NCBI RefSeq assembly: GCF_001306055.1
Contig: NZ_LGHJ01000017.1
Location: 210,001-242,000 of the forward strand
Direction: 5' to 3'
DNA: 32,000 nucleotides
DNA from: Bellilinea caldifistulae
GTDB lineage: Bacteria > Chloroflexota > Anaerolineae > Anaerolineales > Anaerolineaceae
This document shows positions 18,883 to 31,469 of this stretch, in pieces; the stretch's first letter is position 1; each line of letters opens with the position of its first letter. The notes under the pieces are model-generated. The model did no database searches. It saw only the letters and a program-made list of their open reading frames with translations, and was not told the DNA's origin. The translations under genes were made by a program, and so were the position numbers.

Positions 18883-19664
18883 ACCTTTGGATTTTCAGAG
18901 ATATACTCGCGGATGATCTCGTCCACATCCTGCTTTTTGCCGTTTTTCGGGGCGCGCTGACGGGACCGGAAAACATTCACGCCGTTCAGAATCGACCAGG
19001 GACCGGCAATTTTGAGCCCCTGCGCCAGCATCTCCCGGCAGGTTGCGTCAATTTCCTCCGGTGAAGCGCGCATCCGCATCAGCTCCAGCATCGCATCATG
19101 CCAGCGGCGGGTCTGGCCTCCGCCGCCGATAGGCGCATGGATTCCCGTTGCGGCGCTGAAAGCCTGAATCAACGGTTTCATCGTCGGTGAAAAATAATCG
19201 TCGTCAGGTTTTTGGTCGCCGCCGCTTTTTGCTTCTGCATCTACTTCTACTTCTTTTTCTTCTTCTTTTTCTTTATCTTCTTCTATTTCTTCTTCTACGT
19301 AACGTTTCGTTACACGTTCGTTTCTGTTTTTGTAACGTTTCGTTACATCTTTGCGGTGATTGGCAACGCGTTCGGCCGGCGTATCAGCATCTTGACGCTC
19401 CGCAAAATGAGTCACAACCCAGACACCAGGCTCCGCTTCATGCACCACCCCGACTTCTGCCAGGCCGTGGAGAGCCTCGCTCAGCTTCGTCTCATCGAGA
19501 CGGAGGATCCACGCCATATCTTCTACGGGCGGTAGTACACCATCGTTCCCGTTCCTGCCCGCAAGCAAGAACAGCTCTATGGCACGCCGGAATAACCAGT
19601 CTGGCATACGTCCCATTTTGGGATCGTCAAGTATCTCAATGTATAACTTTATCCATCGCCTCAT
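18879..19664 (-). CDS. Phage replisome organizer / DnaD-like replication initiation protein
   Basis: 261 aa. The N-terminus WIKLYIEILDDPKMGRMPDWLFRRAIELFLLAG is typical of the phage replisome-organizer N-terminal domain. It has an acidic linker and a C-terminal helical domain. Confidence 0.7.
   Translation of the reverse strand: MRRWIKLYIEILDDPKMGRMPDWLFRRAIELFLLAGRNGNDGVLPPVEDMAWILRLDETKLSEALHGLAEVGVVHEAEPGVWVVTHFAERQDADTPAERVANHRKDVTKRYKNRNERVTKRYVEEEIEEDKEKEEEKEVEVDAEAKSGGDQKPDDDYFSPTMKPLIQAFSAATGIHAPIGGGGQTRRWHDAMLELMRMRASPEEIDATCREMLAQGLKIAGPWSILNGVNVFRSRQRAPKNGKKQDVDEIIREYISENPKV
19299..19346. repeat. Two copies of the 15-bp palindrome GTAACGTTTCGTTAC, 33 bp apart, inside the replisome organizer gene (candidate origin or iterons)
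   Basis: The copies are at 19299-19313 and 19332-19346 and are identical. They lie immediately next to a long T/C-rich, AT-rich tract (19205-19298). Confidence 0.5.
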
Positions 19665-20709: not shown

Positions 20710-21185
20710 TGCTGCACCTCCTCAAACCCCGGCAGGGGTTTATCGAAATCGAGAATATCCGCAGGAATAAGAATGGGGGTAATCAATGACCGGCTTCCGT
20801 GTGCAACCGCCGCCATCATCTCACTCAACAATACCGTGGTGATATTGACCGGCAGTGTCTTCGGGTCCACTTGCCGGAAGCCGTTGGCTTCCATCCACTT
20901 GATCAGGTCACTCATCCGGAAAACATTCACGCCGTTCGCGTTGACCATCCGCAGCAGATCGTCCACAACGTCGCCGGAGCGGTTGATCACCGCAAAAGCA
21001 TACTGCCCGCGGTGCGGCCAGATCATCACGTAGAGGTTATGCCCCTCATAAACTGCCGTCCCGCTGCGCCCCGCTGCTGCTGCCCGCATACCCGCTACGG
21101 TGGAGTAAAAATCGAGTGGATAAACGCTGGCACAGGCAAGCGAGATCAACGCAAGCAGCAATACAAAAATAGATAACCGTTTCAT
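20706..21185 (-). CDS. Secreted or periplasmic protein with signal peptide (159 aa)
   Basis: MKRLSIFVLLLALISLACASVYP is a classic signal peptide. Function unknown; a superinfection-exclusion-type role is possible. Confidence 0.5.
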   Translation of the reverse strand: MKRLSIFVLLLALISLACASVYPLDFYSTVAGMRAAAAGRSGTAVYEGHNLYVMIWPHRGQYAFAVINRSGDVVDDLLRMVNANGVNVFRMSDLIKWMEANGFRQVDPKTLPVNITTVLLSEMMAAVAHGSRSLITPILIPADILDFDKPLPGFEEVQQ

Positions 21186-21838: not shown

Positions 21839-21944
21839 CTTTCCTCCTCATCTCAAGATAACTTACAAAAACAACAATTGCCAGGGATGCCGCCGGCAGG
21901 CTGCACAGCGCCGCGGTAAAAGCTACCCACTCGTTCATGATTCA

Positions 21945-22176
21945 ACCTCCGCCCGTCTCTCCGGGCCGTCACACCACTTCAAACACCGCAGGTGTCGCGC
22001 GGGAGGCGTCCCTTGCCCTGTCCGCCTGGTCAAGCGTTCTTTCCGCTTTGTCCCCCGCCATTGCAGGCGGAGTTGTAGTCCAGCCGGGCGGGACTTGCAC
22101 CCGCCCAGGCCACTCTGGCGGCTGGATCGAAAGGAGGAGAAGATGAACGGAGTGTCTGGCACACCACCCCGCGCCG
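21945..22176 (-). ncRNA. Structured RNA domain homologous to the 3' third of the module B large RNA
   Basis: There is no credible frame; ORFs 21935-22546(-) and 21937-22146(+) are GC artefacts. It shares a 23-nt identical block GTGACGGCCCGGAGAGACGGGCG, the 19-nt T-loop block GGGTGCAAGTCCCGCCCGG, and compensatory helix changes relative to 28092-28263. Confidence 0.55.
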
Positions 22177-22392
22177 TTAGTCCCGGTTGCGCGACAAGAT
22201 CGCCTCGATCTCGTCGAGGGCTTCCATATTCTCCGCCAGTGCCGTTCCGGCTTTTGCCACCAGGTTGGCCGCCCGCTGGTGCGGAAATTCCTCCACCAGC
22301 CGTTTGAGCGATTCGCGGATCACCCGGTTTGCCAGCCGCGCACGGCTCAATTCTTGTCGGAATACATAACCGCCGATTTTCTTTTCGGTCAT
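22177..22392 (-). CDS. Hypothetical helical protein (71 aa from internal Met)
   Basis: The Met at 22392 has a GGAGGTG RBS. MTEKKIGGYVFRQELSRARLANRVIRESLKRLVEEF... has protein-like composition, unlike the upstream part of the listed 126-aa ORF. Confidence 0.5.
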   Translation of the reverse strand: MTEKKIGGYVFRQELSRARLANRVIRESLKRLVEEFPHQRAANLVAKAGTALAENMEALDEIEAILSRNRD

Positions 22393-22637
22393 AAACACCT
22401 CCGCTTGTCTGCCAAGTGCGCGCTTGATCAAACAAACGGCGTCTAGCCGCCCCGTCGCACAGCCGGTCGAGGTTCTGCCCGACTGCCGCCCGCTGTGCAA
22501 ATTCACCCATTTTGCCTCCCGATTCAATCCTGTACTTGATTCGCAATGGCTAACCAATCACAATAAGCGTGATGATCATTGCGATTAAGCCAAAAACCGC
22601 GAGAAACCAGTTTTCCCAGTCCTCGCGGAATGAATAT

Positions 22638-23600: not shown

Positions 23601-24353
23601 ATGAAAGACAAAGTTTCCCTCACCCTTAATGGTGAAATTCCTGTCAATCTTTTTGCAGAAGCTATATCCGGCTTATCCGGTTTGCTTCATGCTCTTACTG
23701 AAGAGATCGCCGCTGGCAAAACTATTGAGTGGCAGATTATAGAGCTCAGCGCCGGCAGCGCCACGGCTGTCATTCAAGGAATTGCTGATACCGCCGAAGA
23801 CGTGGAAAAAATTACTACCGCATATGCTTTCATTGGTCGGCAGTTGCAAATTGGCAATACGATTCCTTATTCTCCAAAAGTTATTCAATCTGCAAGAAAG
23901 ATTGCCAGCATTCTTGACGGAAAAGTTTCTTCCATCGAATTCGGCATTGATGGCGAAATCTATCACATAACCCAATCTGGTTTTCAAGAAAAACCAATGA
24001 CCAAAGCCTATTCTTACGGCGTTATTACGGGAAAGGTAGAAAACCTGATTGGACATAAAACACTAAAATTTACTCTTTACGATAATCTTTTCAATCGTGG
24101 TGTTACCTGTTATGTAGAAGAGGAAAAACGCGAGTTATTAAGAAATATCTGGGGTAAAACCGTATCGGTTACCGGCTATATATACCGTGACATTATTACA
24201 GGTCGCCCTCTTGAAATTCACGACATTGAAACTGTTGAAATTGTTCCTATGAGAGAACCTGGTGCTTATAAAAAAGCTCGAGGCGCTCTTTCCTGGAAAC
24301 CCGGTGACGAAACTGCAGATCAAACCATACGGCGATTGAGAGATGACAATTAG
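23601..24353 (+). CDS. Unknown 250-aa protein, upstream partner of the PIN nuclease
   Basis: Low-GC ORF with a TATAAT at 23564-69 upstream. No motif recognised. The C-terminal ~90 aa (GVITGKVENLIGHKTLKFTLYD...VSVTGYIYRD...LEIHDIETVEIV) look like a small beta-barrel or OB-like domain. It overlaps the next gene by 11 nt. Confidence 0.6.
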   Translation: MKDKVSLTLNGEIPVNLFAEAISGLSGLLHALTEEIAAGKTIEWQIIELSAGSATAVIQGIADTAEDVEKITTAYAFIGRQLQIGNTIPYSPKVIQSARKIASILDGKVSSIEFGIDGEIYHITQSGFQEKPMTKAYSYGVITGKVENLIGHKTLKFTLYDNLFNRGVTCYVEEEKRELLRNIWGKTVSVTGYIYRDIITGRPLEIHDIETVEIVPMREPGAYKKARGALSWKPGDETADQTIRRLRDDN

Positions 24354-24843
24354 TAGACAAAATCTATACTGGGATTCTTGTGTGTTTCTTAGATACATCA
24401 ATAACGAATTAGATAGTACCATTATTGAAGAATTGATGAGACGAGCCGAATCGAAACAAGTCAACATTTTTACATCCACAATTACTATAGCCGAGGTAAC
24501 CCACGCAGCCCAGGAAAGAAATCAATCTGCCCTGAATTCAGTCATTGAAGATGTATTACAAAATCTGTTCGGTCCTCCTATCAAACTGGTAGATTATTCA
24601 ATAACCATTGGTTATGAAACCAGAGATTTCATTCGCACTGCGATGACTCATTCTAAAAAGATCAAGCCAATAGACGGTATTCACCTTACTACTGCATCCT
24701 GGATTGATCGTTACATTGCTCGGTTGGACGAATTCAACACTTATGATCAAGTCCTCAAGTCGCTCTATCCCGATATCATATCCATCAAAATTATTGAACC
24801 ACATGTTGATCAATTACCTTTATTCAACAATCCGCTCCCATAA
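24343..24843 (+). CDS. PIN-domain (VapC-like) ribonuclease
   Basis: 166 aa. The four acidic positions occur in PIN order: LYWDSCVFL (D), ITIAEVTH (E), KPIDGIHLTTA (D), FNTYDQVL (D). Confidence 0.7.
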   Translation: MTISRQNLYWDSCVFLRYINNELDSTIIEELMRRAESKQVNIFTSTITIAEVTHAAQERNQSALNSVIEDVLQNLFGPPIKLVDYSITIGYETRDFIRTAMTHSKKIKPIDGIHLTTASWIDRYIARLDEFNTYDQVLKSLYPDIISIKIIEPHVDQLPLFNNPLP

Positions 24844-25020
24844 CCTAATCAAGCCGGTATTGGATCTAAACCTGGCTTACTGGCAAGAGCGGGAGGCGCT
24901 TTCAGAACAAATCAAGCTCCTGGAAGAAGATTGAGATTGAATTTATCTAAATCCTTTGTTCAATGATGCAGGTCTTGTTTTATATGACTGCCAATAATAA
25001 AAACCCCCAAAAGGTGACCT

Positions 25021-25398
25021 ATGACAGAACCCTATTACGACAACAAAGCACAATATGACCGCATCCGCGGTTACATCATTCCCGGCGAAACCATCTTTGC
25101 CGTTTATGACTGCAAAGGCGGCGGCACGGGGTTTGTCGGCATTACGGATCGGCGCATCATCTTTTACGATCAGGCCTTCCTGACCAAAAAGAAATCAATG
25201 GTTTCGATCCCCTACAATCAGATCATCGGCATTGCCTCGGTGGATGAAGGAGTCATCTTTCAGACCAGCGAAATTACCCTGCTCACCGCCGCCGGCAATT
25301 ACACTTTCCAGTTCCGCGGCGCCGATAAAGCCCACAATGCCTACAGCTTCATCATGAATCAACTGCTTGGACAGGCACATCCCCAATTGAAGGGATAA
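25021..25398 (+). CDS. Bacterial PH-domain protein (YokE/bPH-like)
   Basis: 125 aa. GETIFAVYDCKGGGTGFVGITDRRIIFYDQAF...SIPYNQIIGIA...ITLLTAAGNYTFQF matches the bacterial pleckstrin-homology pattern. Confidence 0.65.
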   Translation: MTEPYYDNKAQYDRIRGYIIPGETIFAVYDCKGGGTGFVGITDRRIIFYDQAFLTKKKSMVSIPYNQIIGIASVDEGVIFQTSEITLLTAAGNYTFQFRGADKAHNAYSFIMNQLLGQAHPQLKG

Positions 25399-25399
25399 C

Positions 25400-26389
25400 C
25401 TATCCCCCCAGCCCCATGATCATATCTCTAACGTCATCACTGACGAGCTTCCCGTAAATCCCGTCAGTGATACCCATATTGGAGTGCATCAGATTCTGGC
25501 TGATCGCCTTCATCTGCGCCGGCGTCCTGGCCTGCTTGAGCGCGTAAACCGCGTGCCCGTGCCGGAATTTGTGCGGCGATTTATAAGCCACACCCGCGCG
25601 CTCACATAAGACTTTTAGATCATCCCGCAGACTGTGGCGCACCTCAAGCCGCTTGCCGGTCGGCTTCTCGGTGGTGATCTCGCCGAAGCGGTCCAGATGG
25701 GCATACCAGTACGCCTCCGGCGGCAAGCGTTTCCGTAGAAACGCATCCCATTCCTGCACCACTTCAAGCAAGTCGGGAATGTTCAGCAGAAACGTGACCG
25801 CCGCCTTGCTGTTTTTGGTGTGCACGCCCTTTGCCGGCAGCTGCAACACGCGGAGGTTAGCCAGGTCCACGCACTCCAGCGGCAGGGTCACGAATGCCCC
25901 AACCCGCATCCCGGAAAGAAACAGAAACGCAACCGCCGCCCGCATCCGGCGCTGGGCGGTCGTATCTGCCGGGCAGCTAACCAGCTTGCGCACCTCTTCC
26001 AGGGTATAAAGCTCGCGCGATTCCAGCTGAGCCTGCTCACTGCGCCCCCGCGACGGGCGCAGACTCTCCACCCAGCGCGCGTCCATGTTTTTGTAGCGCC
26101 GCGGGTACTCGCTTTTGGCCCAGTTCAGGAACGCCCGGCAGGTTTTCATCATCGCGTTGAGATGCGCCGCCGAGAGCGGCTTTTTATTTTTGCCGATCAG
26201 CGCCTCGCAATAAACCGGAAAGGCCGGCCTGATTCGGCCGCACTTGCTGAACGGCTTTTCATCTGCCCATTCCAGCAGGTGGCGCAGACGCGACCAGAGC
26301 GTGTTGATCGTCCCCGGTGAGAGCTGGCGCACGCTGGCCTGGAAGTCCAGGTAGGCTTTCACATCGAGGTAATTCTGTCTGTGGATCAT
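25400..26389 (-). CDS. int: Tyrosine recombinase / phage integrase
   Basis: 329 aa. It has an N-terminal SAM-like core-binding domain and a catalytic region with R (LSGMRVGAF), HKFRHGHA, LMHSNMGITDGIY (H...Y). Confidence 0.9.
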   Translation of the reverse strand: MIHRQNYLDVKAYLDFQASVRQLSPGTINTLWSRLRHLLEWADEKPFSKCGRIRPAFPVYCEALIGKNKKPLSAAHLNAMMKTCRAFLNWAKSEYPRRYKNMDARWVESLRPSRGRSEQAQLESRELYTLEEVRKLVSCPADTTAQRRMRAAVAFLFLSGMRVGAFVTLPLECVDLANLRVLQLPAKGVHTKNSKAAVTFLLNIPDLLEVVQEWDAFLRKRLPPEAYWYAHLDRFGEITTEKPTGKRLEVRHSLRDDLKVLCERAGVAYKSPHKFRHGHAVYALKQARTPAQMKAISQNLMHSNMGITDGIYGKLVSDDVRDMIMGLGG

Positions 26390-26793
26390 GAAGACTTAAT
26401 GAAGCGGTGGATTTTACCGCCGCACTCCGGGCATGTGCCGCTGAGTTGGACCACATTCTGGCGCCGGCTGTGTGGGCGCATCTTCGGCGACTGCACCATC
26501 ACCACGCGGTTGCAGCGCATGCAATACGCGTGCCCGGCCGGCATGGGGGGCTTGCTTTTGCCGCGCCGGGTGGTGGTCAGGTAGTCGCGCGCCCATTGCG
26601 CAAACTGCCGTCCGTTGATCCACACCTTCCCGCCGGCGTCCAGTACCACCGGGGCACCGGCCGGTATATACGAGCGATAGACCGTATCGTGAGAGACCCC
26701 CAGTTCCTCTGCCAGTTCGGCAGGTTTATAGAGCATATTGAGCAGCCGTTCCAAAGCGGCCGCCTTCGATCGGTTCAGTCGTGGCGCTGGCAC
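26386..26793 (-). CDS. HTH plus C-terminal Zn-ribbon DNA-binding protein coupled to the integrase (excisionase or regulator candidate)
   Basis: GTG start with a GGAGGTG RBS. The HTH is YKPAELAEELGVSHDTVYRSYI and the Zn-ribbon is CMRC...CPEC. Its stop overlaps the int start (ATGA). Confidence 0.55.
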   Translation of the reverse strand: MPAPRLNRSKAAALERLLNMLYKPAELAEELGVSHDTVYRSYIPAGAPVVLDAGGKVWINGRQFAQWARDYLTTTRRGKSKPPMPAGHAYCMRCNRVVMVQSPKMRPHSRRQNVVQLSGTCPECGGKIHRFIKSS

Positions 26794-26855
26794 ACCACAC
26801 CTCCGTAGGATGTATTTTAGATCGCCCTGTGCGCGCAGCGGCGATTCATGATAAA

Positions 26856-26864
26856 ATTATAGCA
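26856..26864 (-). promoter_or_regulatory. Extended -10 promoter candidate (TGCTATAAT) for the 26793 HTH and int operon
   Basis: Minus-strand TGnTATAAT lies about 60 nt upstream of the GTG start. No good -35 is present. Confidence 0.35.
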
Positions 26865-26920
26865 CGCACGGCAAAAAAAGCCACTTAAAAGTGGTGATTA
26901 ACAGGCTAGATATTCCAATC

Positions 26921-26957
26921 CGTGAGGTTCGGGGGTTCGAGCCCCTCCGCGCCCACC
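26921..26957 (+). other. tRNA 3'-end fragment (variable region, T-arm, acceptor 3' strand): prophage att core
   Basis: GGGGG-TTCGAGC-CCCTC-CGCGCCC-A-CC is a canonical T-arm plus acceptor 3' strand. No matching 5' acceptor strand, D-arm or anticodon arm can be folded upstream. It lies next to the integrase operon. Confidence 0.6.
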
Positions 26958-26986
26958 TTCACAGGGATTCCATCCCTGTACTCCGC

Positions 26987-27024
26987 AACGCACCTGATGG
27001 ATCCCTGGGTGCGTTTTGTGTTTT
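26987..27024 (+). terminator. Rho-independent terminator following the tRNA fragment
   Basis: 8-bp stem AACGCACC/GGTGCGTT (26987-94 / 27008-15) followed by TTTTGTGTTTT. A separate perfect hairpin CAGGGAT-tcc-ATCCCTG lies at 26962-78. Confidence 0.5.
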
Positions 27025-27041
27025 CAGCAGGAAGGTCAGAT

Positions 27042-27506
27042 ATGGTTACACTCCCCACATTTCTACCCGTTGCCGAAGCCGCCCGCAAGTACGGGCTGGA
27101 TGAGGCCCGCTTGCGCGCTCTGATTGAGAAAGGTAAAATCAGGGCTGGAGTGGTTGCGGGAGAAATGGTCGTGAGCGAAGAAGAAGTACGAGGACAAGCC
27201 ATTGAGGAGAAAGGTCTCCACAAAGAGGATTTGCCGGAGTATCAGAAACATGCGCATTTGAAAGGGCAGGCAATTTGGATTAGAGAAGCAGAAAGAAGTT
27301 ACGGAGTACCAGCAGAAACTTTATCCACATGGGCTAAAAAGGGATATATTAGAATAGTTGGTAAAAAAGGAAACAAAGTTTTGCTGGATGAAGCGGATGT
27401 TGCTTATTGTTCAGATGTATACAGAAAATCAGGCAAGCAAGGACGCATTCTGTTCAATCCAGATGGAACTCCTTATAAACCTAAAACAACTTCACTTGTG
27501 ATGTAA
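27042..27506 (+). CDS. Tandem excisionase/MerR-type HTH protein
   Basis: The preferred start is ATG 27042 (AGGAAGG RBS), since the upstream part of ORF 26922-27506 overlaps the tRNA fragment and terminator. It has two HTH repeats: LPVAEAARKYGLDEARLRALIEKGKIRA and IWIREAERSYGVPAETLSTWAKKGYIRI. Confidence 0.6.
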   Translation: MVTLPTFLPVAEAARKYGLDEARLRALIEKGKIRAGVVAGEMVVSEEEVRGQAIEEKGLHKEDLPEYQKHAHLKGQAIWIREAERSYGVPAETLSTWAKKGYIRIVGKKGNKVLLDEADVAYCSDVYRKSGKQGRILFNPDGTPYKPKTTSLVM

Positions 27507-27549
27507 CTTAATTAAGAGCGCAGTTTTGATCTGCAATATTTATTTTCTT

Positions 27550-27593
27550 AATTGTCAGAAGTTATTGACGCTTCTGACAATTAATGCTATACT
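27550..27593 (+). promoter_or_regulatory. Near-consensus sigma70 promoter (TTGACG-17-TATACT) embedded in a perfect 12-bp inverted repeat operator
   Basis: The -35 is at 27565-70 and the -10 at 27588-93. AATTGTCAGAAG (27550-61) and CTTCTGACAATT (27571-82) flank the -35. The surrounding context is AT-rich. Confidence 0.7.
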
Positions 27594-27599
27594 CCTCAT

Positions 27600-28290
27600 A
27601 GCACTTTTACAAACCAGCGTCCCGCTGAATGCCTCAAACACAACGCCCCGGCGAAAGGGCGTTGTGCGCCCGACCGGGGCGTTCCGTGAGCCGTGCGGTA
27701 ACACGCTCACGGTTGAGGCAAGCAGACCGTGACTGCTCACCCCATCCGCGATTGTAGCATGAGATGACAGCCCTCTGCAAGCCTCTCACAAGGAATGTGA
27801 TTTGCAGAGGGCTTTGTGTTTCCCGTGCGGTGTTGGCTCAAGGCCTTTCAGGCGGCAGGTGCGTTGTGGCGGGTTCAAGTCCCGCCCGCCTGAATTCCGG
27901 TTTTGCCATGCTAACGTCGGCTGAGCAGGGAGGTGGGAGCGGGGCTGAGTCATCAGCACCCGGCGGGGTAAGGGACGGGGAGCCCTTGCCTGACGGTGCG
28001 GCAGGTGAGACCATCGGAAGCCTGCCGGGGGACGTGACAGCCGGGAGAGACCGGCAAGCACCTTGACAAGCGACATGGTAATCCTCTGTTTCCAACCGCC
28101 ATAGACGGGCAGGATGATCCCCGATCCTGCGGTGGGTGCAAGTCCCGCCCGGTTGGACTGCCAAACCTGTCGGTGTCGTTGCACCATCAACGGACAGGTG
28201 CAGCCCGGCACACCCTAACCAGTGTCGGGAAACAGGCAGGGTGACGGCCCGGAGAGACGGGCGCGAGGGCAATCCCTCTCACTTGATCAA
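27600..28290 (+). ncRNA. Large (~690 nt) highly structured phage RNA of unassigned class (GOLLD/ROOL-like context), co-transcribed with tRNA-Met
   Basis: It has no credible ORF. Perfect helices include 27640-48/27657-65, 27684-91/27705-12, 27769-80/27802-13 and 27999-28005/28021-27. There are two GAGAGA-loop hairpins, two tRNA-like T-arm modules, a promoter upstream and a tRNA immediately downstream. Confidence 0.6.
27769..27821 (+). terminator. Possible internal attenuator/terminator-like hairpin within the large RNA
   Basis: 12-bp stem AGCCCTCTGCAA/TTGCAGAGGGCT with an inner TCACA/TGTGA helix, followed by TTTGTGTTT. It could yield a short ~220-nt RNA, with read-through giving the long form. 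Confidence 0.3.
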
Positions 28291-28361
28291 GCGGGAGTAG
28301 CTCAACGGAAGAGCGGCGGCGTCATGAGCCGCAGGGTGAAGGTTCAAATCCTTCTTCCCGT
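28291..28361 (+). tRNA. tRNA with CAU anticodon (Met, or Ile2 if lysidine-modified)
   Basis: Hand-folded cloverleaf: acceptor GCGGGAG/TTCCCGT (two G-U pairs), D-arm GCTC-AACGGAA-GAGC, anticodon arm GCGGC-GTCATGA-GCCGC, variable AGGGT, T-arm GAAGG-TTCAAAT-CCTTC. No encoded CCA. Confidence 0.8.
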
Positions 28362-28382
28362 TCTGTGAAAACGAGGTTTCTC

Positions 28383-28592
28383 ATGTGTGAGCATCGAAGG
28401 AAAGTTGGCGACAATTACGGACTGACCTGCCTGGACTGCGGCGAGGTGTTGGAAGGCTACGGCTATTGGGGACAGACCGATACCTGCCGTCACGTCTGGA
28501 TGAAAAGCGAAGGCGGCTATGAGTGCCTGTACTGCCAAGAATGGCTGAACGAGGAAACCCGGCAGATGTTTCATGGGGGTGAGCAACCATGA
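28383..28592 (+). CDS. Small Cys-rich (Zn-finger) protein
   Basis: The preferred start is ATG 28383 (GAGG RBS) rather than the GTG at 28365 that abuts the tRNA. The sequence is MCEHRRKVGDNYGLTCLDCGEVL...CRHVW...YECLYCQEW. Its stop overlaps the next start (ATGA). Confidence 0.5.
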   Translation: MCEHRRKVGDNYGLTCLDCGEVLEGYGYWGQTDTCRHVWMKSEGGYECLYCQEWLNEETRQMFHGGEQP

Positions 28593-29104
28593 AAATCAGA
28601 ATGCCGTTAGAAGAAGCCGAACGAATTGCGCTGAAATACGCCGAAATGCTTGCGCCGAAATGCGAGCGTATTGAGATCGCCGGGAGTATTCGGCGGCGTA
28701 AGCCAATGGTAGGCGACATTGAGATTGTGGCAAAGCCGCTGATGTCCACAGACTTGTTCGGCTTTTCCACCGGTCATCAAGACCTAACGCTGCCCTTGCC
28801 AACAAGTAAAAACGGGCAGAGGTACAAACAATATCTTCTGCCGGAAGGTGTAATGCTTGATTTGTTCATTGTCCTGCCACCTGCCCAGTGGGGCGTGATT
28901 TTCGCCATCCGCACGGGTGGGGCGGAGTTTTCCCGCAAACTTGTCACGGCGAAACGATACGGTGGTTACCTGCCGTCTGCTTACGTGGTGAGAGACGGCG
29001 CGGTTCATCGTGTTGATACCGGGGAGATGATCCTTACCCCCGAAGAAATTGATTTTTTCAATCTCTGTGAACTGGACTGGATCAAACCCGAAGAAAGGAA
29101 TTGA
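28589..29104 (+). CDS. Minimal Pol X-family (Pol beta-like) nucleotidyltransferase / DNA polymerase, second copy
   Basis: 171 aa. AGSIRRRKPMVGDIEIVA (GS...D.E), MLDLFIV, IRTGGAEFSRKLVT and LCELDWIKPEERN occur in the same motif order as 15468-16028 and as the ASFV Pol X I recall. Confidence 0.7.
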   Translation: MKIRMPLEEAERIALKYAEMLAPKCERIEIAGSIRRRKPMVGDIEIVAKPLMSTDLFGFSTGHQDLTLPLPTSKNGQRYKQYLLPEGVMLDLFIVLPPAQWGVIFAIRTGGAEFSRKLVTAKRYGGYLPSAYVVRDGAVHRVDTGEMILTPEEIDFFNLCELDWIKPEERN

Positions 29105-29106
29105 AC

Positions 29107-29442
29107 ATGCTCGAAGTACAACTGATCGGCAATCTGGGCAAAGACCCGGAAGCGCGCTACACCCCGGACGGCGTGCTGGTGTGCAGTTTTCCGGTAGCGG
29201 TCAAAACCCGCAAGGATGAAACGGTGTGGGTGGAAGTGAGCGCATGGCGGGAGTTGGGCGAACGCTGCCACCAGTACCTGACGAAAGGGCGGCAGGTGTT
29301 CGTGCGGGGCGTTCCGGCGGTGGAAGCCTTCACCCGCAGAAACGGCGAGCCGGGAGCCAGCCTGAAAGTGACCGCCCAGGTGGTGCAGTTTCTGGGCGGT
29401 GGCAAGACGGATGAGAACGGCGGCGAAGAGATGCCGTTCTAG
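29107..29442 (+). CDS. ssb: Single-stranded DNA-binding protein
   Basis: MLEVQLIGNLGKDPEARYTPDGVLVCSFPVAV...WVEVSAWRELGERCHQYLTKGRQVFVRG is an OB-fold SSB pattern. The acidic C-terminal tip is GGEEMPF. Confidence 0.85.
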   Translation: MLEVQLIGNLGKDPEARYTPDGVLVCSFPVAVKTRKDETVWVEVSAWRELGERCHQYLTKGRQVFVRGVPAVEAFTRRNGEPGASLKVTAQVVQFLGGGKTDENGGEEMPF

Positions 29443-29507
29443 TGGTTGCAGACAATTCAATCTCGATCAACCGGTTCGACCGATGTCGAAAGGGCGGAGC
29501 GTGGGCG

Positions 29508-29774
29508 ATGAAATGTGAAAACTGCGGTGAAGTCATCGAAGGCAAAGCGGTATGGCTGAAAGAGGCGGACGGGACGCCGCTGTGCGTCTGTCGGGACTGC
29601 GCCAACCCGGACTTTGGCGGGCTGACCGATGAAGAACTGGACAACCTGATTGCCCTCGAAGCCGAAGTACGGGAGCGAGAAGAGCGCAAGTTTGAAATCC
29701 TCTTCCGCTTGGAAGGGCTGAGGGCGGATGATCCGCTGTGGGCGGAACTGGCGGAACGCCTGGGGGTGAGGTGA
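29508..29774 (+). CDS. Small Zn-ribbon protein
   Basis: The internal Met at 29508 gives MKCENCGEVIEG...LCVCRDCANPDF followed by a charged helix. Confidence 0.45.
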   Translation: MKCENCGEVIEGKAVWLKEADGTPLCVCRDCANPDFGGLTDEELDNLIALEAEVREREERKFEILFRLEGLRADDPLWAELAERLGVR

Positions 29775-29777
29775 GGC

Positions 29778-30074
29778 ATGACCCGCCGTATCTGGCAAGC
29801 CCCGCCGGGCTACTACTGGAAAGTTATCGTTGACCCGACCCGCACGGGAGACGAACCGGGCATGTTCTACGGCGGACATTTCCGCTGGACGGACATCGTT
29901 CTGCCGGGCTGGGACGAGGAGAGCAAGCGCATCCCCTGCCCGTGGCCAAGCGGGACGGTGTTCGAGAACGTCAAGACCGGCGAGCGGGTGGTCGTACGCA
30001 AGGGCAGGGTCATCCGGCTGGAACAGAACCGCACGATGGAGATGGTGAGATGGACGGCTGTATCCTCGGACTGA
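29778..30074 (+). CDS. Hypothetical protein (98 aa)
   Basis: GGTGAGG RBS, ordinary composition, no motif. Confidence 0.45.
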   Translation: MTRRIWQAPPGYYWKVIVDPTRTGDEPGMFYGGHFRWTDIVLPGWDEESKRIPCPWPSGTVFENVKTGERVVVRKGRVIRLEQNRTMEMVRWTAVSSD

Positions 30075-30556
30075 TTTTGTTTCTGGCGGTGGTACTGTAT
30101 TTCACGCTTGGACTGCGGGTGACGGCGGAGTTGACCCCACCGGCGGAGCGGCATGTGGACGCCCGCAGCAATGACCCGGCGGAGACCTACCGCAGGGTGA
30201 TGGGCGTGGCGGATGAGGTACACAGCCGCTGGTACGAGGGCAAACACCCTGATGAGGTGATTCACCTGCACCTGCCCAACCGTGCGGAGATGGCGAAGCA
30301 CGACACGGACGTGCGGATCAATTTTCGCTGGCTGGAACGGGACGCCGGGGATGTGGATGTGGTACTGCACTATGAGGGTGAACCCGCCGTTGACCGGCGA
30401 GTACGCTGGGACAGGGTGGAGCGCAGCGCAGACGGCAGTATCCGGCGTGCCGAATGGCGGCACAGAGTACCCCGAATGGGGCACAAAGAGGCGGGCTGTC
30501 TGCCGCTGCTGGTTGTGGCGGTGTTGGTGGTCGTGGTGGGAGTTGTTCTGTGGTGA
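30050..30556 (+). CDS. Membrane protein with N- and C-terminal TM segments
   Basis: The internal Met at 30050 gives MDGCILGLILFLAVVLYFTLGL... and the protein ends in CLPLLVVAVLVVVVGVVLW. The upstream part of ORF 29942-30556 is R/G-rich and overlaps the previous gene. Confidence 0.5.
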   Translation: MDGCILGLILFLAVVLYFTLGLRVTAELTPPAERHVDARSNDPAETYRRVMGVADEVHSRWYEGKHPDEVIHLHLPNRAEMAKHDTDVRINFRWLERDAGDVDVVLHYEGEPAVDRRVRWDRVERSADGSIRRAEWRHRVPRMGHKEAGCLPLLVVAVLVVVVGVVLW

Positions 30557-31469
30557 AGCGGATGACGGTTGTCGTGTTCCTGTTGCTGTGCGGGTGCGTG
30601 AGCGCACCGGCGCAGATTGTCCCGCCCGACCCGGCGGCGTTGCGGGCAACCGCCCAGGCTGCCGAGGCGTTAGCCGGGCAGGTGGAAGAACAGGCACGGG
30701 CAACCCAATCTGCCCAGGAGACCTACCTGCGGCAGACCGCCGAAGCGGTGAGCATCGAAGCCACCCGGCAGGCGGTCAGCGTGGAAGCCACCAAACAGGC
30801 GTTACTGGTCGCCGAGCAGACCTACCGGATGACGGCAACCGCCCATGCGGTGGAGCGGGAGGCGGAGCGGGAAGAGCAAGCCCGCCGTCAGGAGGGTGTG
30901 CTGCACCTGCTGGCGCTGGTCGTCCTGCTGCTGACCCTCTTATCCCTCGGCGGGGTGTTGGTGCTGCTGGTGTGGAAAGCGGGCAACGAGTGGATTGGCT
31001 GGCAGTCGCGGCGCAGGCAGTTGGTGGAGAGCCGGGCGGGGACGCTGCTGCTGGTGGCGGAGAACGGCCCGCCGGTGCGGGTGCAGGTCATTCAACCGGC
31101 GTTACCGGCGAGGCTGCCGGTGGTCGAGGACGAGGAGACCGAGACCGAGCCGATCCCGTACTCGGTGGACGGGGAACTGGTGGGCTTCATCCAGCGCAGG
31201 GGAGACCCGCAGCGGAGGCTGGTGTTGAGACTGCTGCGGGAGAGCATCCAGGCGGTTGGAGCGAGAAGCAGCCGCTTCCCGGCTGGCGGGAGTTGGGATG
31301 GAGTGCGGAAGTGTGGACGCAGGCGGTGCGACTGCTGTGGCGGTATGTCGAAACCCAGCCGGGCAAGGGTACATACCTGACGGGGGAGTACCCGACCTTG
31401 CAGGAGTTGTACTATGCGGTAGGAGAGAAGCGGGCAATCCTCTCCCCTGCCCCGCAGGAGGTTGATTGA
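30553..31469 (+). CDS. Signal-peptide or lipoprotein-like, coiled-coil, TM-containing protein, apparently interrupted by a -1 frame change near 31258-31265
   Basis: The start is GTG 30553 (GTGA overlap) or ATG 30562, giving (V)KRMTVVVFLLLCGCVSA. Frame A reads well to ...LRLLRESIQAVG, then degenerates. The frame of ORF 30282-31469 reads well only from EKQPLPGWRELGWSAEVWTQAVRLLWRYVETQPGKGTYL to the stop at 31469. Confidence 0.45.

Follow-up and report, generated by a model that had tools for sequence, protein, structure and literature searches.

We analyzed a 32,000-nucleotide (nt) stretch of the chromosome of Bellilinea caldifistulae GOMI-1 (Chloroflexota; contig NZ_LGHJ01000017.1), hereafter the window, which corresponds to a temperate siphovirus-type prophage and in which an earlier sequence-only reading had noticed a partial second copy of one RNA architecture on the opposite strand. 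We show here that positions 21946-22174 on the minus strand are non-coding and encode a reduced paralogue (copy A) of a composite leader RNA (copy B, 28083-28267 on the plus strand), and that the two-hairpin motif with which both copies end also occurs, singly or as tandem copies, in phages and prophages across nearly all bacterial phyla. This motif is absent from Rfam. In both the motif and the composite, the helices are maintained by compensation in independent sequences, which is the criterion for a structured RNA.

The two copies display a common order of parts, consisting of a CCUCC tract, a T-loop domain closed by a helix, one or more variable hairpins and the two-hairpin motif. As originally proposed, the segment 21946-22137 (minus strand) matches the composite at 28083-28267 in reduced form. 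A repeat search recovered the shared 23-nt block with 100% complementarity (21950-21972 versus 28241-28263) and placed the shared 19-mer GGGTGCAAGTCCCGCCCGG, followed by [C/T]TGGACT, inside a 29-nt repeat that is 93% complementary (22077-22105 versus 28131-28159). The correspondence between TCCAGCCGCCAGAG and TCCAACCGCCATAG is likewise present, and the swap in the closing helix H1 can be read in the sequence, with CCAGCC (22125-22120) facing GGCTGG (22085-22080) in copy A and CCAACC (28092-28097) facing GGTTGG (28151-28156) in copy B. The same replacement of G-C by A-U in H1 is seen again in winB, L276 and L285. The next helix of copy A, said to occupy the same position as in copy B with an unrelated sequence, does so, but RNAfold favors two local hairpins there, the proposed CCGCCUG..CAGGCGG pairing being an equally possible outer helix. 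This outer helix aligns with helix H5 of the wider family described below.

Read in its own direction on the minus strand, copy A starts just past the stop codon of a 71-amino acid (aa) open reading frame (ORF) with a 5' leader, GCGCGGGGUGGUGUGCCAGACACUCCGUUCAUCUUCUCCUCCUUU (22130-22174), that includes the CUCCUCC tract (22139-22133). The T-loop domain (22080-22125), closed by H1, contains a small hairpin, GCCA-GAG-UGGC (22119-22109), and a T-loop hairpin, GGGCGGG-UGCAAGU-CCCGCCC (22106-22086). Its RNAfold energy is -31.7 kcal/mol (z = -3.1), and the T-loop domains as a whole fold as predicted, with z values of about -3. The variable middle hairpin or hairpins (22025-22070) follow, at the position of H5. 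The two-hairpin motif (21947-21998), which our covariance model R1 scores at 44.7 bits (E = 3e-9), is formed by a first stem, P1 (ACACC 21995-21991 with GGUGU 21975-21971), a GACG junction (21970-21967) and a second stem, P2 (GCCCG 21966-21962 with CGGGC 21955-21951), capped by the loop GAGAGA (21961-21956). The ACACC/GGUGU variant of P1 is also found in L030, L051, L054 and L106.

Composite B is more elaborate. It is composed of a CCUCU tract, H1 (28092-28098/28150-28156) enclosing hairpins, among them a T-loop hairpin (28131-28149), then CUGCC, H5 (28167-28198), H6 and motif copy B2, in which P1 pairs ACCCU (28212-28216) with AGGGU (28238-28242) and a GACG junction leads to P2 (28247-28262). 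A further motif copy, B1, lies upstream on the same strand (28029-28059; GUGACA-GCCGG-GAGAGA-CCGGC, 38.4 bits) and has a degenerate P1; upstream copies of this type are also present in L261, L262, L266, L275, L276 and L285. The window has three occurrences of the degenerate 22-mer GTGACNGCCNGGAGAGACNGGC, where a shuffle control predicts 0.01, so that region B holds two motif copies and region A one. The covariance model scores these copies at 44.7, 41.4 and 38.4 bits; the E-values, which range from 1e-7 to 3e-9, are rough owing to a shortened calibration. All three copies are co-oriented and not complementary.

A coding explanation for this region was rejected. The sequence-only reading had found no credible frame, and mechanical ORFs do in fact cross the region, for example a 203-aa one at 21935-22546 (minus strand), but conservation is at the nucleotide level, because the overlapping ORFs match relatives in broken pieces, in every frame and on both strands, and the indels that separate homologues have lengths not divisible by three. 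That selection acts on RNA rather than on protein, as had been suggested, is borne out by about 23 distinct composites in which helices are kept by compensation, the neighboring genes differing among relatives. The GGAGG (21950-21946) at the end of copy A does precede an ATG at 21938, but the 38-codon hydrophobic ORF that it would serve (21938-21822, minus strand) is doubtful as a gene; tblastn found no match for it in relatives of the prophage, and a terminator-like hairpin (21898-21879) lies inside it. The idea that the CUCCUCC tract might pair with this Shine-Dalgarno sequence found no support: although CCUCC is kept throughout the family, homologues have no conserved GGAGG past P2 with which it could pair.

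The anatomy of the motif, as seen across its instances, can be written 5'-(R)A-[ACNNN]-loop of 5-57 nt-[N'N'N'GU]-GACR-[GCCNG]-GARAGA-[CN'GGC]-A, for a module of 45-60 nt. The base of P1, the GAC-R junction, the P2 stem GCCNG/CN'GGC, the GARAGA loop and the next A are fixed, while the inner three pairs of P1 occur as GC, CG, AU, UA and GU. The five-base pair (bp) partner of P1 is present at the exact register in 90 of the 118 listed viral instances, versus 4-45 of 118 when the register is shifted. For the listed genome instances the figure is 65 of 116, versus about 20 at shifts of 2-4 nt and 41-44 at +/-1. Strict Watson-Crick pairing accounts for 57 instances with a P1 partner; allowing G-U raises this to 89 (32 more) and allowing A-C only to 64 (7 more). 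The covariation of P1, together with the preference for G-U over A-C, places the motif at the RNA level and on the motif strand. In an alignment of 117 distinct sequences, which was fitted to the model and hence leans toward the structure, 97.4% of cells are paired versus 21-51% when partners are slid, and there are 130 double-change cells versus 33 in shuffles. In divergent copies recovered with the model, GAC-R persists together with the GCC/GGC ends of the stem and a loop of GAGAGA or GAAAGA, and one cyanophage copy has GACCG/CGGUC as P2.

These data bear directly on whether the motif might act as DNA. A DNA-level site, as the sequence-only reading had pointed out, should recur in other genomes without the pairing partners; across homologues, the P1 partner is both kept and covarying. 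It is very improbable that the element is a promoter, recombination, packaging or operator site, or for that matter a ligand-sensing riboswitch. The resemblance of GTGACA to a -35 hexamer, the G-poor region past P2 and the insertion of different tRNAs just past the motif in related phages would suit a DNA site, as would the perfect dyad of P2, whose fourth-pair covariation could stem from a symmetric protein site, but covariation of P1 across loops of 5-57 nt, with G-U far above A-C, is unlike such a site. A riboswitch is at odds with the unrelated genes found behind the motif, some of the units being tRNAs, which do not look like a regulon. The promoter reading of GTGACA in particular was rejected, as there is no conserved -10 position downstream and the P1 spacing is variable.

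Several further interactions were sought within the motif. Pairing between its two flanks, which could form a closing helix, is at chance level; the GARAGA loop has no enriched pseudoknot partner and none nearby; and alternative pairing of the 3' strand of P1 with the ACC tail shows no association, so there is no switch. This simplicity makes it improbable that the module is a new small self-cleaving ribozyme, that is, a natural insulator of the RiboJ type that cuts polycistronic RNA and leaves a hairpin at the new end. Its size of 45-60 nt, with about 20 invariant nucleotides in junction and loop, is like that of known small ribozymes, there is no shared protein partner, and its spread is phage-restricted, independent of phylum, often in tandem and near tRNAs; hammerhead, twister and HDV-like ribozymes show similar genomic behavior. 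However, two simple hairpins with neither closing helix nor loop pseudoknot offer no obvious active site, and no Rfam ribozyme (hammerhead, twister, twister-sister, pistol, hatchet or HDV-like) matched the window at E <= 10 or 16 motif loci at gathering thresholds.

The composite was then recovered from relatives by scanning metagenomes for a T-loop core followed 92-122 nt later by the motif, which yielded 38 contigs with about 23 distinct sequences and a single architecture. Its order is a CCUCC tract (5' of H1 in 23 of 23 family members), H1 around one to three hairpins, usually two T-loop hairpins, CUGCC, H5, H6, GGCAG, the 3' strand of P1, GAC-R and P2, the 5' strand of P1 being carried by the loop of hairpin H6. 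In these composites, evaluated by RNAalifold and pair counting, consensus pairing reaches 97.3% versus 34-51% with partners slid, and double changes occur at ten pairs versus 4.0 +/- 1.5 in shuffles (0 of 500). Compensatory changes affect H1 and the T-loop hairpin, and H5 and H6 also compensate. An Rfam scan of six composite loci returned only tRNAs and chance-level matches.

The contigs that bear the composite belong to relatives of the window prophage, as judged by tblastn, and their composites use either of the same two gene positions as the window. The A position, behind a homologue of the 71-aa ORF, is used in L260, L261, L274, L277 and L291, and the B position in most others, past an HTH_17 gene, a promoter, a conserved leader and a terminator, and before genes for a DNA polymerase beta-like (pol-beta-like) protein and SSB. 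Because L260 and L277 pair a nearly exact version of the 5' leader of copy A with a full T-loop domain, copy A of the window is a reduced copy. Behind the composite, genes are reshuffled from one relative to another, and the window has tRNA-Met there, L262 tRNA-Leu and L275 tRNA-Thr, with no tRNA in others; tRNA genes appear to be inserted as cassettes just behind the motif. In L277 (1984-3545), the pol-beta-like and SSB genes stand behind an A-position composite, whereas in the window the same genes belong to module B, which indicates that early-gene blocks are shuffled behind the RNA element. More distant phages that have a pol-beta-like gene lack the whole RNA island and were of no use for covariation.

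The two-hairpin motif itself reaches far beyond this family. Searches with the pattern and with the covariance model built on it revealed helix-preserving substitutions and at least 120 exact matches to GTGACNGCCNGGAGAGACNGGC in IMG/VR viral contigs, as well as at least 120 matches, with GARAGA allowed, in bacterial contigs representing one genome per species. By our own estimate from the 19 specified bases, less than one match is expected by chance. Both counts are lower bounds, and the figures that follow rest on the matches listed. Among these, the hosts include Acidobacteriota, Clostridia, Cyanobacteria, Planctomycetota, Bacteroidota, Chloroflexota, Spirochaetota, Actinomycetota, Verrucomicrobiota and all proteobacterial classes, and the same core is found in low-GC hosts. 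GenBank phages with the motif infect Synechococcus, Planktothrix, Pseudomonas, Stenotrophomonas, Cronobacter, Rhodobacter, Acinetobacter, Klebsiella and E. coli (phage mEp390), and P1-like phage-plasmids also carry it, although it is nearly absent from E. coli (1 of 5426 genomes). The 23-nt identity between copies A and B is consequently the invariant core of a pan-bacterial phage motif, and not a mark of recent copying.

The surroundings of the motif, for which ORF-based statistics are crude in GC-rich DNA, show two tendencies. First, it often sits flush against a downstream unit: in about 120 of the 213 cases with a downstream ORF, this ORF starts 2-30 nt past the motif, and tRNAs or non-canonical tRNA-like elements often begin 3-7 nt past P2, tRNA-Met being the commonest. 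Downstream genes are mostly co-oriented with the motif (65 versus 25 opposed), while upstream genes are mixed (47 versus 41). The downstream ORFs are mutually unrelated (largest family, 8 of 213), as are neighboring proteins more generally (largest family, 17 of about 120 loci), and no partner protein gene common to the motif loci was found, N proteins being too small and divergent for this comparison to exclude. Second, long non-coding gaps are favored, such as the pL leader of mEp390 (about 700 nt, with no annotated N gene), the early region of Medea1, a cyanophage divergent region, the region past int in an Acinetobacter phage and a 1.7-kb gap in P1-like plasmids. A T-arm hairpin is found no more than 400 nt before the motif in 18 of 107 loci and no more than 400 nt after it in 17 (background, 0.011), about a third of loci having a tRNA or tRNA-like fold at this distance, and tandem copies 100-180 nt apart are frequent, in arrays of two or three.

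The latter features could point to a trans-acting small stable RNA or decoy, freed by tRNA-processing enzymes, that titrates a widespread host factor (a nuclease, a toxin or an RNA-binding regulator) or mimics its substrate. We regard this as rather improbable. Tandem arrays and clustering with tRNAs and tRNA-like elements in RNA islands fit such a role, as do the invariant loop and stem, which could be a protein-binding site, and an accessory, mobile-looking spread in which phages sharing the pol-beta-like gene go without the module. On the other hand, no candidate target is known, there is no complementary loop partner nearby, and an RNA acting in trans needs neither co-orientation nor placement flush before ribosome-binding sites.

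Our preferred explanation, which we advance tentatively, is that the motif is a cis-acting punctuation or insulation signal on polycistronic early transcripts, read by universal host machinery. The tRNA-like part and the adjacent tRNAs would be cut out by RNase P, and the two-hairpin module would be recognized by a universal host component, RNase P being our first guess and elongating RNA polymerase the second. RNase P might also handle the microhelix-like P2 with its A-CC tail. The leader would thereby be uncoupled from the downstream unit, and a hairpin-protected end would be left directly before the next ribosome-binding site or tRNA. This explanation is supported by the RNA-level conservation of P1, the pan-bacterial spread, the lack of a partner protein and the placement flush before ribosome-binding sites and tRNAs, together with the prevailing co-orientation with downstream genes, the nearby T-arm hairpins and the frequent tandem copies. 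It is also supported by the composite, which is kept by compensation, stands at the head of early operons in either position, and has different genes and tRNAs behind it. The window contains one such element per divergent early operon. As hints of an RNase P substrate, visible in sequence alone, P2 starts with G and ends with C, and a tail leaning toward A-C-C follows (A in 75%, C in 45% and C in 43% of instances), like a discriminator base plus CC.

A number of points weigh against this explanation. RNase P normally measures a 12-bp acceptor/T stack, far longer than the 5 bp of P2; a purine stands before P2 in place of the usual U; and the full ACC tail is present in only about 20% of instances and missing in most of the listed low-GC and non-proteobacterial examples, which could reflect base composition. 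A hairpin that simply protects an end leaves the invariance of the P2 stem and GARAGA loop without a reason. Part of the P2 invariance was imposed by the exact pattern with which the seed set was picked, though the divergent copies recovered with the model do retain it. In addition, small ORFs and about 1 kb of sequence separate copy A from its promoter.

An alternative with some appeal, though we consider it unlikely, is that the nascent module binds its own RNA polymerase, without any protein, as a put-like processive antiterminator or anti-pausing RNA, and so allows reading through terminators and Rho sites in long operons and in untranslated tRNA and leader stretches. Like nutL and nutR, the cis-acting RNA signals of the temperate phage lambda, the element is present once per divergent early operon and would act in cis. 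P2 (A-GCCCG-GARAGA-CGGGC-A) also resembles boxB (A-GCCCU-GAAAA-AGGGC-A) in having a 5-bp stem that begins with GCC, a purine-rich GA-loop and A flanks. However, none of the three window copies has a boxA-like CGCUCUUA upstream, and the motif differs in its hexaloop closed by G-C, its obligatory P1 and GAC junction, and its pan-bacterial range. Identity with lambda nut was rejected, since no score of the model on the lambda immunity region exceeds 3.4 bits and none of these weak matches falls at nutL or nutR. The put RNAs of HK022 are two stem-loops of about 50-70 nt that need no dedicated protein and occur once per early operon; ten put sequences have been aligned (PMC9378689), and the distribution of our motif is far wider. 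The two-stem-loop layout and the single element per early operon are shared, and the HK022 relative mEp390 has the motif in its pL leader, but the loop of P1 varies freely in length and copies also occur mid-operon and beside tRNAs. Homology to put was rejected as well, model R1 giving at most 7.7 bits in HK022 24000-31000, a region in which the put sites were not placed independently.

The genomic evidence on antitermination is divided. The absence of a shared partner protein and the range of the motif fit a target as conserved as RNA polymerase, and the operon arrangement is that of putL/putR and nutL/nutR. In mEp390, a lambdoid phage, the only copies are those in the pL leader. The motif is found about 45 nt past a promoter and before the terminase operon in the T1-like phage CS01, is followed by an intrinsic terminator and then tRNA-Met in Medea1, and has two terminators directly past it in two Serratia prophages; a terminator-like hairpin lies about 50 nt past copy A, and the preference for unusually long non-coding gaps is also in keeping with antitermination. 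In contrast, terminator-like hairpins are not enriched downstream (11 within 300 nt of 194 instances, and similar upstream), and the strong terminator at the B position lies upstream of the composite, not downstream. Many copies are mid-operon and flush with a ribosome-binding site, the pR operon of mEp390 has no copy, and the model has no match in the HK022 or lambda immunity regions.

Two observations concern individual copies in these phages. In the Serratia prophages (L140 and L183), two intrinsic terminators stand in tandem 31-34 and 66-68 nt past the motif. In mEp390 (L123/NC_019721, 27447-27743), the hypothetical coding sequence gp36 overlaps a diverged motif-like hairpin, GUGACA-CCUCG-GAAGAGA-CGAGG, within the pL leader and may be spurious.

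Other known systems were compared with the same outcome. Processing signals of the mascRNA type and phage leader RNAs that RNase P processes, such as P1 C4 and P4 CI, are likewise tRNA-like folds at unit boundaries or early-operon leaders of temperate phages, but the two-hairpin module is not tRNA-shaped. A C4/CI antisense RNA was rejected, the only c4-a1b1 match being at chance level (11.2 bits, E = 6) and the motif copies being co-oriented. GOLLD and ROOL are similarly long structured non-coding regions of prophages beside tRNA genes, but there is no Rfam match to them at E <= 5, and the B leader consists of separable modules strung together, not of a single large fold. Rfam scans of the whole window (gathering thresholds), of both regions and the B leader (E <= 5-10) and of 16 motif loci returned only tRNAs and chance matches. 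Searches of the full-text literature found no description of the core, the supplementary data of a 2023 catalogue of viral structured RNAs, which could contain the motif, lying outside that search. Beyond its T-arm-type fold and compensated helices, the element lacked the defining features of known classes in the comparisons that could be made. By analogy, it would broadly be a cis-acting structured leader or intercistronic phage RNA, most like nut/put signals or tRNA punctuation. On the strand opposite motif copy A, the window also has a weak match (13.6 bits; 21932-21998, plus strand) to the Pseudomonas small RNA P10, whose reverse-complemented consensus has a loosely similar two-hairpin layout.

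The shared 19-nt block is a generic T-loop hairpin: it recurs exactly in a jumbo-phage tRNA and in a group II intron, and related phages have its UGCAAGU loop in bona fide tRNAs. The window has three such hairpins, the third within a mini tRNA-like element (27849-27892). As in canonical tRNAs, a T-arm-type hairpin (stem of 5-7 bp, loop of 7 nt) is held within an acceptor-like helix, and the predicted folds agree with this, but 22080-22125, 28092-28156 and 27849-27892 are called as tRNAs by neither ARAGORN nor Rfam (RF00005). The block, as GGGUGCAAGUCCCGCCCGG, is also an almost exact match to the start of the RF02003 consensus, in domain I of group II introns. A group II intron (RF02003 D1-D4) was nevertheless rejected, with scores of 11.6-12.4 bits versus a gathering threshold of 49, only the T-loop hairpin being in common; no intron family reached threshold in the Rfam scan of the whole window, and a scan of neighboring ORFs gave no reverse-transcriptase match. 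A GGAGAGA in the intron of L001 is a coincidence, as it falls at the consensus GAAA loop.

Taken more broadly, and with the same reserve as our preferred explanation of punctuation, P1-GACR-P2(GARAGA) may be an uncatalogued, autonomous class of functional RNA that would either act as a new small ribozyme or bind directly to a universal machine (RNA polymerase or RNase P). Phages of almost every phylum would insert it before genes and tRNAs to punctuate or protect transcripts, the Bellilinea composite being an elaborated version fused to a tRNA-like domain. The 22-nt core is identical across phages of Bacteroidota, Clostridia, Cyanobacteria, Chloroflexota and Proteobacteria, which implies that it touches a partner no less conserved than RNA polymerase, RNase P or the ribosome, or else has an intrinsic catalytic fold. 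Should the element prove to be an antiterminator, a processing signal or a ribozyme, it would represent a new general logic of phage gene expression as well as a portable tool, the module being short, host-independent and placed where synthetic biologists put insulators. The covariance model and about 250 loci are at hand for experiments, and phage "tRNA islands" hold further conserved RNAs.

As for the setting, the prophage genes in the window include those for terminase, portal, protease, major head and tail proteins, a ParB-like protein, integrase, HTH regulators and SSB, and BLAST of the window against GenBank phages gave no match. Two divergent operons are present. The leftward one is headed by a sigma-70 consensus promoter (23057-23030, minus strand; TTGACA-16-TATAAT with an upstream TG, 12 of 12 matches), about 1 kb downstream of which copy A is placed directly past the conserved 71-aa ORF (22392-22177, minus strand; stop codon 22179-22177). 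The rightward one is headed by a promoter-like site (27565-27593, plus strand; TTGACG-17-TATACT) with a homologous promoter and leader in L267. Copy B is located in the roughly 700-nt untranslated leader of this operon, which is strongly structured (693 nt, z = -4.0), and ends 28 nt before a tRNA-Met (CAU) gene (28291-28363, plus strand), the sole tRNA called in the window by ARAGORN or Rfam.

The first portion of the B leader is itself conserved. This structured 5' segment (27598-27822, plus strand), about 220 nt long and located past the rightward promoter, is homologous to L267 6315-6540 and closes with a strong terminator-like hairpin (27768-27822), then UUUGUGUUU. It holds two mutually exclusive pairings, AACGCC/GGCGUU versus AACGCCCCGG/CCGGGGCGUU, and looks like an attenuator or a separate small RNA upstream of the tRNA-like and motif modules. 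The mini tRNA-like element (27849-27892, plus strand) that comes after it has a 7-bp acceptor-like stem and a T-arm, without an anticodon arm, and gives a weak Rfam mascRNA match (21.5 bits); a homologue lies directly 5' of the composite in L263, L270, L281, L284 and L289. Directly past the RNA island and its tRNA, a 171-aa protein (28589-29104, plus strand) has the palm and thumb domains of DNA polymerase beta and could be a nucleotidyltransferase acting on RNA 3' ends. Finally, two direct repeats were observed: an exact 22-nt one, CCGGAAAACATTCACGCCGTTC, in the leftward operon (18966-18987 and 20916-20937, spaced by 1950 nt), and a 40-nt one, 73% identical, that links the B leader (27647-27686) with the inside of the SSB gene (29277-29316).

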